Under the pieces are notes generated by a model. That model was not told the DNA's origin. It was given only the letters and a program-made list of their open reading frames with translations, and searched no databases. Both the position numbers and the translations under genes were made by a program. From a virus: a stretch of DNA of 64,000 bases. Positions 832 to 17,373 of the stretch are shown piece after piece (within the stretch, counting starts at the first letter, position 1; every line of letters starts with the position of its first letter). Where the stretch lies: IMG/VR virus record IMGVR_UViG_3300020578_000040, positions 17,367-81,366 of that record; one strand, 5' to 3'.

Positions 832-1064
832 AGCCCCGCACTCAACTCAAGACGGAAGCCCCGCTTTCCCAGGGGAGGAGTCTGTCTAGCGGGGCTGCGA
901 ATCGCTCGATCCTTACGGGGCTGCGGCGCGTAACCGAGGCCCTCGACGCCGGCCACCAACCGCGCGTATCCGACACCCGAGCACCGCGCGTATCCTGAAC
1001 CGCGCGTATGCGCACGCACGGTAGGCACATGGGCGCGTATGCGCTCGCGCGCGCGTGTGCGTGT
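832..1064. repeat. non-coding element A: nested AGCCCCGC/GCGGGGCT boxes plus CGCGCGTAT repeats
   Basis: Boxes at 832, 857, 888, 916; CGCGCGTAT at 961, 985, 1001; CACGGTAGGCACATG at 1017-1031. Confidence 0.8.
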
Positions 1065-2927: not shown

Positions 2928-3392
2928 ATGGGACTCGATCAGTACCTACACGCAAAGAAATACACCTCGCCCGCCGAATGGCGACCCGAGGCCGAGCGCA
3001 AGGCTTACGCCGACATCATGAAGGCGGTGCAAGTCAGCGAGTTCATGGATGACCACTTGCCCTCCGCAACCGTCGAAGTGATGGTGGCCTACTGGCGCAA
3101 GCAGAACGCCATCCACAAGTGGTTCGTGGACAACCATCAGGGTGGCGAGGACGACTGCCGTGAGTCCTACGTCGGACGTCAGGGGCTGGAAAGCCTGCGC
3201 GACGTCTGTCGCGAGGTGCTGGCCGACCACTCGAAGGCCGACGAACTCCTGCCCACGGAGTCCGGGTTCTTCTTCGGTGGCACGGAGTACGACAAGTGGT
3301 ACTTCGATGGGCTGGCCTACACGGTCGAGCGTATCGAGAAGTTGCTCACCATGCCCGACGACTGGGACTTCTACTACCAGTCATCGTGGTGA
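2928..3392 (+). CDS. conserved phage hypothetical protein
   Basis: MGLDQYL...YWRKQNAIHKWF...GFFFG...YYQSSW signature. Confidence 0.85.
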   Translation: MGLDQYLHAKKYTSPAEWRPEAERKAYADIMKAVQVSEFMDDHLPSATVEVMVAYWRKQNAIHKWFVDNHQGGEDDCRESYVGRQGLESLRDVCREVLADHSKADELLPTESGFFFGGTEYDKWYFDGLAYTVERIEKLLTMPDDWDFYYQSSW

Positions 3393-3400
3393 CCCGCTCA

Positions 3401-3428
3401 GGGGTCGGTCTCTTCGGAGGCCGACCCC
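3401..3428 (+). other. stable intergenic hairpin with C(UUCG)G tetraloop
   Basis: GGGGTCGGTCTC-TTCG-GAGGCCGACCCC; no U-tract. Confidence 0.7.
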
Positions 3429-3463
3429 ACCATCATCTACAAACACAGAAACAGGAGAATGAA

Positions 3464-3628
3464 ATGACACTCACCGAATGCGACGTCCAGCGGATCGAAG
3501 ACCTGCTGAAGGAACTCCCCGCCATGATCGAAGAGCATGGATACCCGTATGCGCTAGGCGGTGCTGAGTATTGGCTGAAGCGCATCGTCGAATTGTCCGC
3601 GCACCAGAAGAAAGGAATTGGGCAATGA
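3464..3628 (+). CDS. hypothetical protein (54 aa)
   Basis: AGGAG RBS; ATGA overlap with whiB. Confidence 0.7.
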   Translation: MTLTECDVQRIEDLLKELPAMIEEHGYPYALGGAEYWLKRIVELSAHQKKGIGQ

Positions 3629-3849
3629 ACAACGAGGAAGCCAAGTGCAAGGGCAAGGGCAAAATCTTCTTCGCCCCTCACGCAGAGCGACCCCAGGCCC
3701 GCGTCCGTCGCGAGGCCATCGCCATCGCCCTCTGCCTGTCGTGCCCACTCGTCGATGAGTGTCGAGTGGCTGGCGCGAATGAGGAGCACGGCATCTGGGG
3801 TGGCACCACCGAGCGCGACCGCGGAATGGTCAAGGAGCGAGCCCGCTAA
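3625..3849 (+). CDS. whiB: WhiB-family transcription factor
   Basis: C...CxxC...C cysteines and GIWGG turn motif. Confidence 0.9.
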   Translation: MNNEEAKCKGKGKIFFAPHAERPQARVRREAIAIALCLSCPLVDECRVAGANEEHGIWGGTTERDRGMVKERAR

Positions 3850-3864
3850 ATAGCCAGCCATTAT

Positions 3865-3880
3865 CCGAACAAATGTTCGG
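3865..3880. promoter_or_regulatory. putative LexA (SOS) box, actinobacterial/Gram-positive type
   Basis: CCGAAC-AAAT-GTTCGG matches CGAAC-N4-GTTCG. Confidence 0.55.
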
Positions 3881-3923
3881 GTGTTGCTGGATGACGGCCG
3901 GCGTTCTCGGTTAGGGTGTGCTC

Positions 3924-3995
3924 GACGCACAACCTCCATGTGTGTCCGAGAGCCCCGCCGTTTCTTTCCTCCTTTCTGGACGGCGGGGCTTCTCG
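3924..3995 (+). ncRNA. candidate small RNA with two anti-Shine-Dalgarno hairpin loops
   Basis: GACGCACA-ACCTCCA-TGTGTGTC and AGCCCCGCCGTT-TCTTTCCTCCTTTCTG-GACGGCGGGGCT; G-U pairs favour the + strand. Confidence 0.45.
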
Positions 3996-4003
3996 TATTC
4001 TGG

Positions 4004-4217
4004 AGCCCCGCACACTGCGCTGCCCTGGAGCCCCGCTCGCACTCGATCCAGCGGGGCTCGCGCGGCCACGGACCAGCGGGGCTGCGGCGTTCGCGCGTAT
4101 GTCTTACGCGGCCTCACGATTCGCGCGTATGTAATGGGCCGGCAGATTCGCGCGTATGTCTCCCACTTCGCGCGTATGTAGGCCACGGTAGGCACATGAC
4201 GATCCACGCGCGCGTAA
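4004..4217. repeat. non-coding element B (paralog of element A)
   Basis: Boxes at 4004, 4029, 4050, 4075; four TTCGCGCGTATGT; CACGGTAGGCACATG at 4184-4198. Confidence 0.8.
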
Positions 4218-4234
4218 TCTTTGTGGTGTCCCCT

Positions 4235-4529
4235 CGATTTGACAGAGGGTGGCAGGGCTGATAGGTTTGGGTTTGTCGGGGCAACTCGACACCAAGCCAA
4301 CTCGATTTGACCAGCCCTGTATGGTCTGATAGAGTTCGGTTTGTCGGGGCAACTCGGCAGGCCTGCTATGACGCACTATCTAAGTGACTCGCCCGATTTG
4401 ACGGTGACTCACCCACCTGATAGATTCAGGTTTGTCGAGTTCTCCCGACACCTAGCCGATTCGATTTGACAGGCTCACACCTGTCCGATAGATTCGGAAA
4501 CGCAATACCTACTACCGAAAGGAATACCA
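4235..4529 (+). promoter_or_regulatory. array of four tandem early promoters with stem-loops
   Basis: -35 at 4239, 4307, 4398, 4466, each 17 bp from a TAG(G/A)(T/G)T -10. Confidence 0.85.
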
Positions 4530-4919
4530 ATGTCCCTTACCATCGACCGTGCTATTGCCGATCTCTTGGTTCTCCGTGACAAGGAGAAGGAGATCGAGCA
4601 GGCCAAGCGAGACACGGAGGCTCTGCTCGTCGCCCTGTTCGACGACGCAGGAATCGACCACTACGAGACCACCGACAAGGTGCGTGTCGCCGTGGAGAAC
4701 CGTCCCCGTCGCTCATTCGACATGGACAGTCTGCTGGCGAACCTGCCGGCGACCGTCCTCAACATGGTGCTGAAGCAGACCGTCGATTCGTCGGCGTTCG
4801 ACAGTGCCGTGGAGACCGGCCTCGTCCCGACCCCCGTGGTCGAGCAGGCCGTCACGATCTCGTATTCCACGCAAGTGCGTGTGTACGGGCAGAAGGGTGT
4901 TCGGGGCGACCGCTCCTGA
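4530..4919 (+). CDS. hypothetical protein
   Basis: GAAAGGA RBS; N-terminal coiled coil. Confidence 0.8.
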   Translation: MSLTIDRAIADLLVLRDKEKEIEQAKRDTEALLVALFDDAGIDHYETTDKVRVAVENRPRRSFDMDSLLANLPATVLNMVLKQTVDSSAFDSAVETGLVPTPVVEQAVTISYSTQVRVYGQKGVRGDRS

Positions 4920-4935
4920 CACCCCTCACAACCTG

Positions 4936-4962
4936 ACATTTGGTCATGTCAGGCTCCTTTCC
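4936..4962 (+). terminator. putative terminator hairpin
   Basis: CCTGACAT-TTGGTC-ATGTCAGG followed by CTCCTTT. Confidence 0.45.
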
Positions 4963-4981
4963 GCATGACCCCTCACCCCGT

Positions 4982-5064
4982 CGATTTGACAGGGGTGGGG
5001 GGAATGTGGGAGACTTCATTCGGAGCCAACCACTCCACCTACCTACTACCGAAAGGCAAACTCA
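4982..5064 (+). promoter_or_regulatory. early promoter cassette (variant -10)
   Basis: CGATTTGACA-18-GAGACT; ACCTACCTACTACCGAAAGG leader. Confidence 0.65.
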
Positions 5065-5790
5065 ATGACCACCACCAATACCGCCATGCCTCAGTGCTGG
5101 CAAGATGTACACGACTGCCTCGCCTCGGGTGTCGATCGCCTCGTGCTGTTCGGCCCTCCGGGGACTGGCAAGACCTTCGCCGGTCTCACGATGGGCGATG
5201 TAACCACCGGAGCGTTCCGCGTCGTCTGTAACGAGGAGATGACCTCGGCCGATGTGACCGGACACTTCCAGCCCACGGGCAACGAGTGGACTTGGAACGA
5301 GGGCGCGGTTCTCCGTGCTTGGAAGGGCAACGGCTCTCACGGCGGTCGCGTCGTGGCAGACGAGATCGACCGTGCGTCGGGCGATGTGTTGTCGCTCCTG
5401 CTCGCCATGTTCGACTCGCCGGAGTCGGCCTCTTGGACGCACCCTGCGACCAAGCAGACCTTCCGTCCCCTCCCCGGATTCAGCGTCATCATGACGACGA
5501 ACATCGAGGACATGAGGGAACTCCCGACCGCTCTCAGGGATCGGTTCCCCGTGGCTATTCGTATCAACCGCCCACACCCGAACGCCCTGTTGGCCCTGCC
5601 GGAGGACTTGCGTGAGGTGGCCTCAGCCAGCGTGGACGCAGACGACGAGCGACGGTACTCGATTCGTACCTTCCAGTCATACGCCAAGTTGCGTGGAACG
5701 CTGGGTTCGGAGCGAGCCGCGACGCTGGTGTTCGGCAAGAACGCCAAGTCCATCATGGACGCCATCAAGATCGAGGAGGTCTCCAAGTGA
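5065..5790 (+). CDS. MoxR/CobS-like AAA+ ATPase
   Basis: Walker A GPPGTGKT, Walker B VVADEIDR, sensor TTN, ALRDRF arginine finger. Confidence 0.9.
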   Translation: MTTTNTAMPQCWQDVHDCLASGVDRLVLFGPPGTGKTFAGLTMGDVTTGAFRVVCNEEMTSADVTGHFQPTGNEWTWNEGAVLRAWKGNGSHGGRVVADEIDRASGDVLSLLLAMFDSPESASWTHPATKQTFRPLPGFSVIMTTNIEDMRELPTALRDRFPVAIRINRPHPNALLALPEDLREVASASVDADDERRYSIRTFQSYAKLRGTLGSERAATLVFGKNAKSIMDAIKIEEVSK

Positions 5791-7256: not shown

Positions 7257-7307
7257 CCGCGAGAGGGGTGGGGCAGGGTTTGTTCTCCTTGTCCCCACCC
7301 CACCCCT

Positions 7308-7394
7308 CGATTTGACCCAGCCTCACCGCTGGTGTAGGATCGAGTTTGTGGGGAAACCCACACCTATCAAGTACCTACCTACAAAGGAGTCATC
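7308..7394 (+). promoter_or_regulatory. early promoter cassette
   Basis: TTGACC(7312)-17-TAGGAT; TGTGGG-GAAA-CCCACA hairpin; TACCTACCTACAAAGGAG. Confidence 0.8.
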
Positions 7395-17212: not shown

Positions 17213-17373
17213 ATCGCCCCGGCCGCAAGCCAACCAACAACCCAACGCTGACAATCAAACTGACGCCGAAGATTAAGCGACATCTTATTGAGGTTGCCAG
17301 CCTTAACGACATGTCGATCACCGAGTACCTGGTGACGCTGATCGAGCGCGACGCCGGCCAGTCACTACAGTAA
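17209..17373 (+). CDS. ribbon-helix-helix protein (54 aa, not in ORF track)
   Basis: PGRKP...LTIKL...KRHL...A....MSITEYLVTLIERD. Confidence 0.75.
   Translation: MNRPGRKPTNNPTLTIKLTPKIKRHLIEVASLNDMSITEYLVTLIERDAGQSLQ

Follow-up and report, generated by a model that had tools for sequence, protein, structure and literature searches.

The early region of this phage carries, beyond a WhiB-like gene, two adjacent hairpins whose loops contain anti-Shine-Dalgarno (anti-SD) sequence, which raises the question of whether the locus makes an RNA and what such loops would do in it. The window analysed is a 64,000-nt stretch (positions 17,367 to 81,366) of the 81-kb IMG/VR record IMGVR_UViG_3300020578_000040, and positions given below are those of the window unless a relative is named. 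The record comes from lake-water metagenomes and encodes a WhiB protein; the host is therefore taken to be an actinobacterium and the virus an actinophage. CheckV rates the record as 54% complete, the runs with this DNA include contigs of 142–165 kb, and relatives linked through the AAA protein reach 160 kb; the phage is probably about 150 kb long and a member of a large uncultured clade. Its G+C content passes from ~0.60 in the + strand early and middle half (1–26000) to 0.45–0.50 in the − strand late half (26000–64000). A first-pass annotation had read the hairpins as a mimic of the 16S rRNA tail that represses SD-led mRNAs while leaderless phage genes escape.

The two hairpins, H1 and H2, abut without a spacer, and the H2 stem amounts to 15 bp in total (Table 1). 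The predicted + strand fold of 3924–4002 consists of exactly H1 and H2 at −40.8 kcal/mol (z = −7.6 against shuffles), in agreement with the pair of hairpins originally described, whereas the − strand of the same interval folds less stably (−37.4 kcal/mol). The G-U pairs of the unit were likewise correctly assigned to the + strand alone, as they become mismatches on the other. When the 5′ flank is included (3915–4005), the lowest-energy fold has a competing helix in place of H1.

Table 1. Coordinates of the two-hairpin unit and of neighbouring features in the window
Feature	Position	Strand	Description	Basis
Further AGAAAGGA copies inside the window	starts 363, 1240, 2311, 2913	+		
AGAAAGGA ribosome-binding site of the WhiB gene	3609–3616	+	one of 12 identical early sites	
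WhiB-like gene	3625–3849	+	Pfam PF02467, E = 4e-11; upstream of the unit	
Putative promoter	3888–3917	+	TGGATG (3888–3893), 18-nt spacer, TAGGGT (3912–3917), 6 nt before H1	inferred
Hairpin H1	3924–3946	+	8-bp stem, one G-U pair, 7-nt loop ACCUCCA (3932–3938)	sequence, fold
H1 arms	3924–3931, 3939–3946	+	GACGCACA (3924–3931), loop ACCTCCA (3932–3938), TGTGTGTC (3939–3946)	sequence
Hairpin H2	3947–3995	+	4 + 11 bp, one bulged U, 18-nt loop (3962–3979)	sequence, fold
H2 lower stem	3947–3950, 3992–3995	+	CGAG with CTCG; T3991 bulged	
H2 upper stem	3951–3961, 3980–3990	+	AGCCCCGCCGT with ACGGCGGGGCT	
H2 loop	3962–3979	+	TTCTTTCCTCCTTTCTGG; 18 nt, or 16 nt if a T-G pair closes the loop	
16S-tail 10-mer in H2 loop	3968–3977	+	CCTCCTTTCT (RNA: CCUCCUUUCU)	
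UCCUUUCU	within CCUCCUUUCU	+	complement of early ribosome-binding site AGAAAGGA	
U-rich tail	3996–4003	+	UAUUCUGG here, UUUUCUAG in L123, UUUUCCGG in L131; probable transcript 3′ end	
Context, outside the RNA unit	4004–4495	+	boxes 4004–4083, four TTCGCGCGTATGT 4090–4181, four tandem promoters 4239–4495	
Nested boxes AGCCCCGC/GCGGGGCT	4004–4083	+	non-coding module 3′ of the unit	
Gam-like gene	4530–4919	+	preceded by four tandem promoters	
Hairpin with CU-rich tract CUCCUUUCC	4942–4970	+	after Gam-like gene, just before the −35 of the next promoter	
G/C-rich hairpin, loop UUUGUUCUCCUUGU	7263–7308	+	after 489-aa gene; 4 nt before −35 TTGACC at 7312	

The loop motif by itself lies within chance: the 16S-tail 10-mer occurs once in the 81-kb record, and with up to one mismatch there are 2 matches where 3.5 are expected. 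When the 89 CCTCC sites of the + strand were scored, that of H1 was the sole one in the loop of a hairpin with a closing stem of 6 bp or more; the H2 copy was missed by this scoring because the fold places a small 3-bp pairing inside its loop. What goes beyond chance is the context, namely the placement in loops, the abutting hairpins, and conservation with covariation in relatives.

That conservation was followed in two relatives, L123 and L131, found through the Gam-like protein, with gene starts in relatives called by simple rules. The Gam-like and AAA proteins of the window are 88% and 93% identical to those of L123 and 43% and 71% identical to those of L131, and both relatives carry the unit at the equivalent place, before the promoter array. 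The exact unit was thereby found in three independent copies, plus close strain variants. By blastn, window 3925–4003 matches L131 at 85%, the sole match outside genes and the one of highest identity within 10 kb, compared to 70–76% for the coding matches; the match begins at base 2 of H1 and stops at 4003, after the U-rich tail. Across 3950–4000, 47 of 51 columns are invariant in the three phages, and a strain variant from a 2025 run has five changes in 3829–3893 and none in 3894–3976. The strain in a 2025 freshwater run also shows a 6-nt deletion and a 20-nt insertion in the four-promoter array (window 4370, 4498). No DNA match to 3400–4600, near or distant, was found in the GenBank phage collection, public phage genomes gave no protein match for the 489-aa gene, and the AAA protein had matches of only 32%, in Microbacterium jumbo phages.

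Changes within the stems tend to preserve pairing. The outer GA..UC of H1 becomes AG..CU in L123, and in L131 the arms read GAUG(C)ACGC and GCGUCGUC, with pairing retained in both; the lower stem of H2, CGAG/CUCG here, is CGGG/CUCG with a G-U pair in L123 and CGAU/AUCG in L131. The CCUCC of the H1 loop is invariant in all three phages, and the H2 loop is identical in L123 and matches at 16 of 18 positions in L131, where CCUCC becomes CUUCC and CUUCCUUUCU stands in place of the 10-mer. The + strand fold beats the − strand fold in each of the three. The first-pass annotation had looked to conserved loops and to covariance in related phages; the former are present, and the latter is seen in H1 and at the base of H2, the upper stem of H2 not varying at all. 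Because of the covariation, the G-U pairs that fit the + strand only and the U-rich tail, the reading of H1–H2 as a structured + strand RNA element rather than a chance hairpin is supported.

The invariant upper stem has a possible explanation at the DNA level. It is an inverted pair of AGCCCCGC boxes, which recur in this phage, so part of the conservation may concern DNA: the boxes would bind a phage DNA-binding protein as an operator, with the hairpin as a by-product. Consistent with this, the sequence of the AGCCCCGC/GCGGGGCT boxes is unchanged, without any covariation, in seven modules here and in L131, L128 and L134; the spacer within inverted pairs measures 14 or 24 bp, a difference of one helical turn; and in L131 an outer box pair surrounds the whole unit, with one box in the putative promoter spacer. 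An operator accounts for the invariant upper stem, but not for the pairing that reaches past the boxes with compensatory and G-U changes, for H1, which is box-free yet covaries, for a unit loop conserved at 16/18 when neighbouring box hairpins of the ordinary type already have unlike loops in the window and L123, or for relatives that show the same loop motif on box-free stems, and we consider it improbable. The nested boxes are present at window 832–1064 and 4004–4217, L131 3528–3664, L128 90–230 and L134 2620–2760, with direct copies 25–26 bp apart and a sequence conserved across phages whose proteins are only 43–45% identical; they hint at recognition by a sequence-specific protein or at processing of the RNase III type.

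The opposite strand was considered as well, since it reads as a perfect 10-nt SD (AGAAAGGAGG) that might be a real ribosome-binding site, and ORFs that might encode a small protein cross the region on both strands. No start codon lies within 25 nt of this − strand SD in the window or in L131, and the G-U pairs mismatch on this strand. The ORF at 3433–3939 (−) is a shadow of WhiB, with 60% versus 80% conservation. Coding readings on either strand were rejected, conservation against L123 being equal in every reading frame across the region and L131 differing by 2-nt indels, and the probability of any minus-strand feature is close to negligible.

Signals flanking the unit bear on whether it is transcribed on its own. 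A promoter-like pair precedes H1 with a layout conserved in the three phages, consisting of a −35-like TnGAC(a), 17–18 nt, a −10 TAnnnT and 6–7 nt to H1: L123 has TGGACA, 18 nt and TAAGGT, then 6 nt, and L131 has TGGACG, 17 nt and TACACT, then 7 nt, while the −35 hexamer of a strain variant (run X24) is TAGACA. The −35 of the window matches at 3/6 positions, the promoter is weak here, and a promoter scan did not call it. On the 3′ side, H2 is followed on the + strand only by UAUUCU in the window, an imperfect tract, by UUUUCU in L123 and by UUUUCC in L131; a consensus terminator scan did not call H2, because its loop is 18 nt long. With a promoter-like pair and a U-rich tail in three phages, the unit resembles a small RNA gene or a terminator module, and its anatomy looks like that of a small RNA gene of about 77–80 nt, the two transcript ends being predicted. 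The phage DNA was present in 24 sequencing runs, no RNA run among them. The unit starts 75 nt past the WhiB stop, and in the window and L123 WhiB transcripts would run into H1–H2 and be ended there; L131 has no WhiB gene upstream of the unit.

Some other sites in this phage and its distant relatives resemble these signals. At window 20483 (− strand), TTGCTGGA, 19 nt and TAGACT lie ahead of the start of a − strand operon, with the TTGCTGGA word and the spacing in common with the putative promoter of the unit. Pyrimidine tracts ending in CCTCC, e.g. ttcctctctccccCCTCCacggagcgtcgatTTGAC, occur at 1064–1100 and 1152–1181, 13–16 nt upstream of the −35 TTGAC of early promoters, and like tracts are present in modules at genome 10.8 and 16.4 kb; these could be further anti-SD-like 3′ ends or promoter-upstream elements. 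In distant relatives (L127 3530–3566, L133 1188–1224), TTGAC, 17 nt and GATAGGAT are found, and 9 nt past the −10, CCTCCATG (CCTTCCATG in L133) opens an ORF, which possibly has a leaderless start or a very short leader.

A terminator or insulator with no SD pairing would share much of this anatomy. H2, with H1 as an accessory, would end the upstream operon before the promoter array, and its pyrimidine-rich loop would be kept for termination, for 3′-end stability or for the binding of S1, Rho, a phage factor or another protein. The position ~100 nt past the WhiB stop, the G/C-rich stem and the U-rich tail on the + strand only are all as expected of a terminator, and CU-loop hairpins also end the Gam-like and 489-aa genes, right before the next promoters; these genes, with that of an AAA+ ATPase, make up the block past the promoters. 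Behind the Gam-like gene, L123 retains the CU-rich tract CUCCUUUCC and L131 has it as UCCCUUUCC. The phage of L131 has a second hairpin (L196 7026–7066), with loop GUUUUUCCUUCUUUCUA and a clear U-tract of the classic kind, 2.8 kb downstream of its AAA gene. Against this, an 18-nt loop is atypical of a terminator, the terminator scan made no call, hairpins at gene ends of this phage usually have tetraloops of the GNRA type, and the L131 unit is ~240 nt from the nearest upstream gene. The loop sequences provide a further point, which depends on what they match.

The 10-mer CCUCCUUUCU of the H2 loop is identical to the 3′ end of actinobacterial 16S rRNA. GGATCACCTCCTTTCT is present once in a Nocardia genome and once in a Streptomycetaceae genome, and the Nocardia copy is the 3′ end of the Rfam 16S match, so the original identification of the 10-mer with the 16S 3′ end is sound. 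The loop is also complementary to the phage's own early ribosome-binding sites, again as first proposed: AGAAAGGA occurs in 12 + strand copies in the record, each 4–8 nt before the start codon of an early gene and none at a late gene, and its sole reverse copy is the H2 loop. The L131 phage repeats this pattern with 15 GAAAGGAA sites whose lone intergenic reverse copy is the loop, where CUUCCUUUCU is a 9-nt complement of AGAAAGGAA. Predicted duplexes between the H2 loop and the 12 early sites range from −11 to −16.6 kcal/mol; those of the H1 loop are weak (−3.6 to −5.9 kcal/mol). Within the operon, the 10-mer sits 119 nt past the WhiB stop, and the operon's own sites at 2913 and 3609 are both AGAAAGGA. 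Pairing in cis with the WhiB site was ruled out as the conserved function, the WhiB gene of L123 using a different site and L131 having no WhiB gene upstream.

The other half of the original proposal found no support. Genes of the late class, on the other strand, mostly have short SD-like motifs such as AGGAG, AAGGAA and GAGGAA, the early cassettes have leaders, and no leaderless gene class was seen in this phage. Two further considerations concern the pairing itself. Judged by its sequence, the H2 loop complements any strong SD and would offer no specificity for targets, and an RNA carrying the anti-SD of the ribosome must contend with thousands of ribosomes, which counts against a pairing role.

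Identity to the 16S tail could also make the loops a decoy that titrates a factor recognising or cutting the anti-SD, such as a MazF-type toxin of abortive infection. Some mycobacterial MazF toxins cut UUCCU or CUCCU, the anti-SD of 16S rRNA included, and this cleavage, together with the 10-nt identity and a relative's loop (L239) that has ACCUCCUUUC in common with the 16S tail, speaks for the idea. The locus has no toxin or antitoxin context, and in L131 the change from CCUCC to CUUCC departs from 16S toward that phage's own GGAA-type sites, leaving the decoy with only a slight chance of being correct.

Loops were also compared across the wider phage group. A search with the AAA protein yielded 192 relatives in IMG/VR, and 80 of their loci were analysed. 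A covariance model of the unit found the full unit in the L131 record only, with weaker matches in 12 loci on the gene strand. Other loci have different stems with similar loops, as in hairpins of the L230 type (CCUUACCCUCCUUUCA) and those of L239 (GUCUUACCUCCUUUCAA), L254 (CUUGCUCCUUUGU), L249 (UUUGACUCCUUU) and L216 (UUACUCCUUUU). Most such hairpins lie past the 489-aa gene, ~50 nt before the next start codon, and the relative position of the 7263–7308 hairpin of the window equals that of anti-SD-loop hairpins in many relatives.

Among strong hairpins of the 80 loci (stems of 10 bp or more, loops of 8 nt or more), 18 of 171 distinct ones on the gene strand carry a 6-mer of the 16S tail, compared to 2 with reversed 6-mers and 1 with SD-like 6-mers; on the opposite strand a 16S-tail 6-mer occurs in 3 of 141 and an SD-like 6-mer in 11. 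When no motif was presupposed, the top three loop 5-mers of the gene strand were TCCTT, CCTTT and CTCCT, on at least 15 unrelated stems. Weak 7-bp hairpins showed no strand enrichment (71 versus 65), and no co-variation was found between a loop and the ribosome-binding site of the next gene (6.27 versus 6.01 nt), as expected if any strong SD is a target. Because the enrichment depends on the order of the bases, it is not explained by base composition or by S1 or Rho binding, and a role limited to termination, with 18 anti-SD against 2 reversed loops left unaccounted for, appears unlikely.

In many relatives the hairpin is ~50 nt upstream of the next start codon and separated from it by no evident promoter, which could instead indicate a translation enhancer or ribosome standby site, in which the loops recruit 30S subunits via S1 for the next gene on read-through transcripts. 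Pyrimidine-rich tracts upstream of SDs are known S1 sites. H2 of the window, however, is 535 nt and four promoters from the next start, and the 7263–7308 hairpin is upstream of the −35 of the next promoter, so that transcripts from that promoter would not contain it. The order-specific enrichment, moreover, speaks for base pairing, and we regard recruitment through S1 as very improbable.

Broader searches gave no additional relatives of the unit. A viral-contig scan for AGCCCCGC..GCGGGGCT returned generic G/C hairpins, a scan of 596 Gb of genomes for TCCTTTCT in the loop of a G/C stem yielded no homologue, its 34 matches being unrelated and spread over many phyla, and a search with the precise H2 stem and an unrestricted loop returned two hairpins, both unrelated. 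G/C hairpins with loops such as CUUUACUCCUUUCU, CUUUCUUUUCCUUUCUA and CUUACUUCCUUUCU occur in lake viral contigs and one Opitutae-binned contig (L136/L137/L139/L144/L151/L154, L138/L141/L146/L153, L145/L147/L152, L166), and the L145 group has late proteins in common with this phage. The lake CU-loop contigs of the L136, L138 and L145 groups were left out of the evidence, their strand relative to the genes being unsettled.

Taken as a single-stranded anti-SD copy on a stable sense-strand stem, the unit is most economically read in terms of SD pairing. We propose, at slightly less than even confidence, that it is a + strand RNA module of ~80 nt ending in an intrinsic terminator, whose loops pair with SDs to brake early mRNAs, and that the early genes of the phage itself are probably translated less as a result. 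On this model, transcripts of the WhiB operon would carry the H1–H2 RNA at their 3′ end, and a weak sigma-A-type promoter of the unit itself, whose +1 would be the opening base of H1, would probably yield it as well. Anti-SD sequence would then stand single-stranded in each of the two loops and pair with SDs, foremost with the extended site AGAAAGGA(A/G) common to the phage's early genes, so that 30S subunits could not bind and the mRNA would be open to decay. The element would in this way restrain the early SD-led mRNAs of the phage, and possibly those of the host, acting either in cis, within one mRNA, in the manner of icaR, or in trans, as an sRNA between molecules. A discrete RNA, one that could reach the 12 early mRNAs in trans as well, is favoured by the promoter-like signals, the terminator-like end and the abrupt limits of conservation. 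RNA production, the position of the 5′ end, pairing in vivo and the choice between cis and trans are the parts of this model that we infer. The first-pass view of a 16S-tail mimic repressing SD-led mRNAs is accordingly retained as far as the structure, the conserved loops, the 16S match, the early-site complementarity, the promoter-like pair and the enrichment over 80 loci carry it, and finds no support on leaderless escape.

Several host RNAs offer parallels. RsaE/RoxS, hairpins 7, 13 and 14 of RNAIII and the 6C RNA of Actinobacteria pair C/U-rich loops with the SD regions of many mRNAs, and in RNAIII one such loop is that of the terminator. The phage unit has C/U-rich, SD-complementary loops of this sort, but these are host genes with CCCC or UCCC motifs, whereas the unit is a phage element with a 16S-tail copy and without sequence or model similarity to them. 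Intrinsic terminators resemble it in closing an operon with a G/C-rich stem and a U-rich tail; they differ from its 18-nt sequence-conserved loop, its abutting second hairpin and its imperfect tail, UAUUCU. Rfam models gave no relevant match to window 3000–5500 at E up to 10, including 6C (RF01066), RsaE and cuckoo-type models, and no match at gathering score in five related loci.

The cuckoo/CcsR RNAs come nearest to the unit in design, yet by its sequence the unit belongs to no known family. Cuckoo RNAs of Alphaproteobacteria (RSs0680/CcsR, SmelC397 and others) consist of 2–4 adjacent hairpins with a CCUCC-containing anti-SD-like loop motif, which is their sole conserved sequence while the stems vary freely by compensatory changes (PMC4615179). 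The phage unit is similar in having two abutting hairpins in all three phages and CCUCC in its loops. It is not counted as a member because it is without the defining motif CCUCCUCCC, its loops being ACCUCCA and UUCUUUCCUCCUUUCUGG with only CCUCC in common, because its setting is an actinophage rather than an alphaproteobacterial chromosome, with only H2-type loops common to the phage group, and because no Rfam match was found.

Anti-SD sequences acting within mRNAs are also known. The anti-SD motif in the 3′UTR of icaR in S. aureus pairs with the ribosome-binding site, blocks initiation and promotes decay (PMC3868564), and anti-SD-like 8-mers of B. subtilis do the same across hundreds of nt; bacterial mRNAs are normally under selection to avoid such sequences, as these silence the ribosome-binding sites of the mRNAs that carry them (PMC12697547). 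As in icaR, the phage motif is in a 3′ untranslated end, and the two last genes of its operon use AGAAAGGA. Unlike in icaR or B. subtilis, it is displayed in loops, duplicated, set in a putative terminator with perhaps its own promoter, and recurrent in a clade, and its pairing is predicted. A literature search found no such anti-SD-loop mechanism described for phages or Actinobacteria. In T4, class-wide shut-down of early mRNAs through common ribosome-binding sites relies on the repressor RegA and the GGAG-cutting nuclease RegB (PMC3014915). The likeness to these is functional only, the effectors being proteins in T4 and RNA in the present proposal.

A more general, and doubtful, extension is that this freshwater actinophage clade uses anti-SD copies on terminator-type hairpins, here an 80-nt sRNA, as a general switch that silences the SD-led early class, and perhaps host mRNAs, once such RNAs accumulate. 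If true, such a switch would be an RNA-only counterpart of T4 RegA/RegB, and would also provide a portable, ready-made translational brake for actinobacterial genetics. If the loops instead serve termination or protein binding, they would represent an unrecognised feature of terminators. Across a clade with 192 or more IMG/VR relatives, no loop motif of strong sense-strand hairpins is commoner than anti-SD, and if the loops act as proposed, these phages would have a cheap, RNA-only means to time or cap the expression of a whole gene class.
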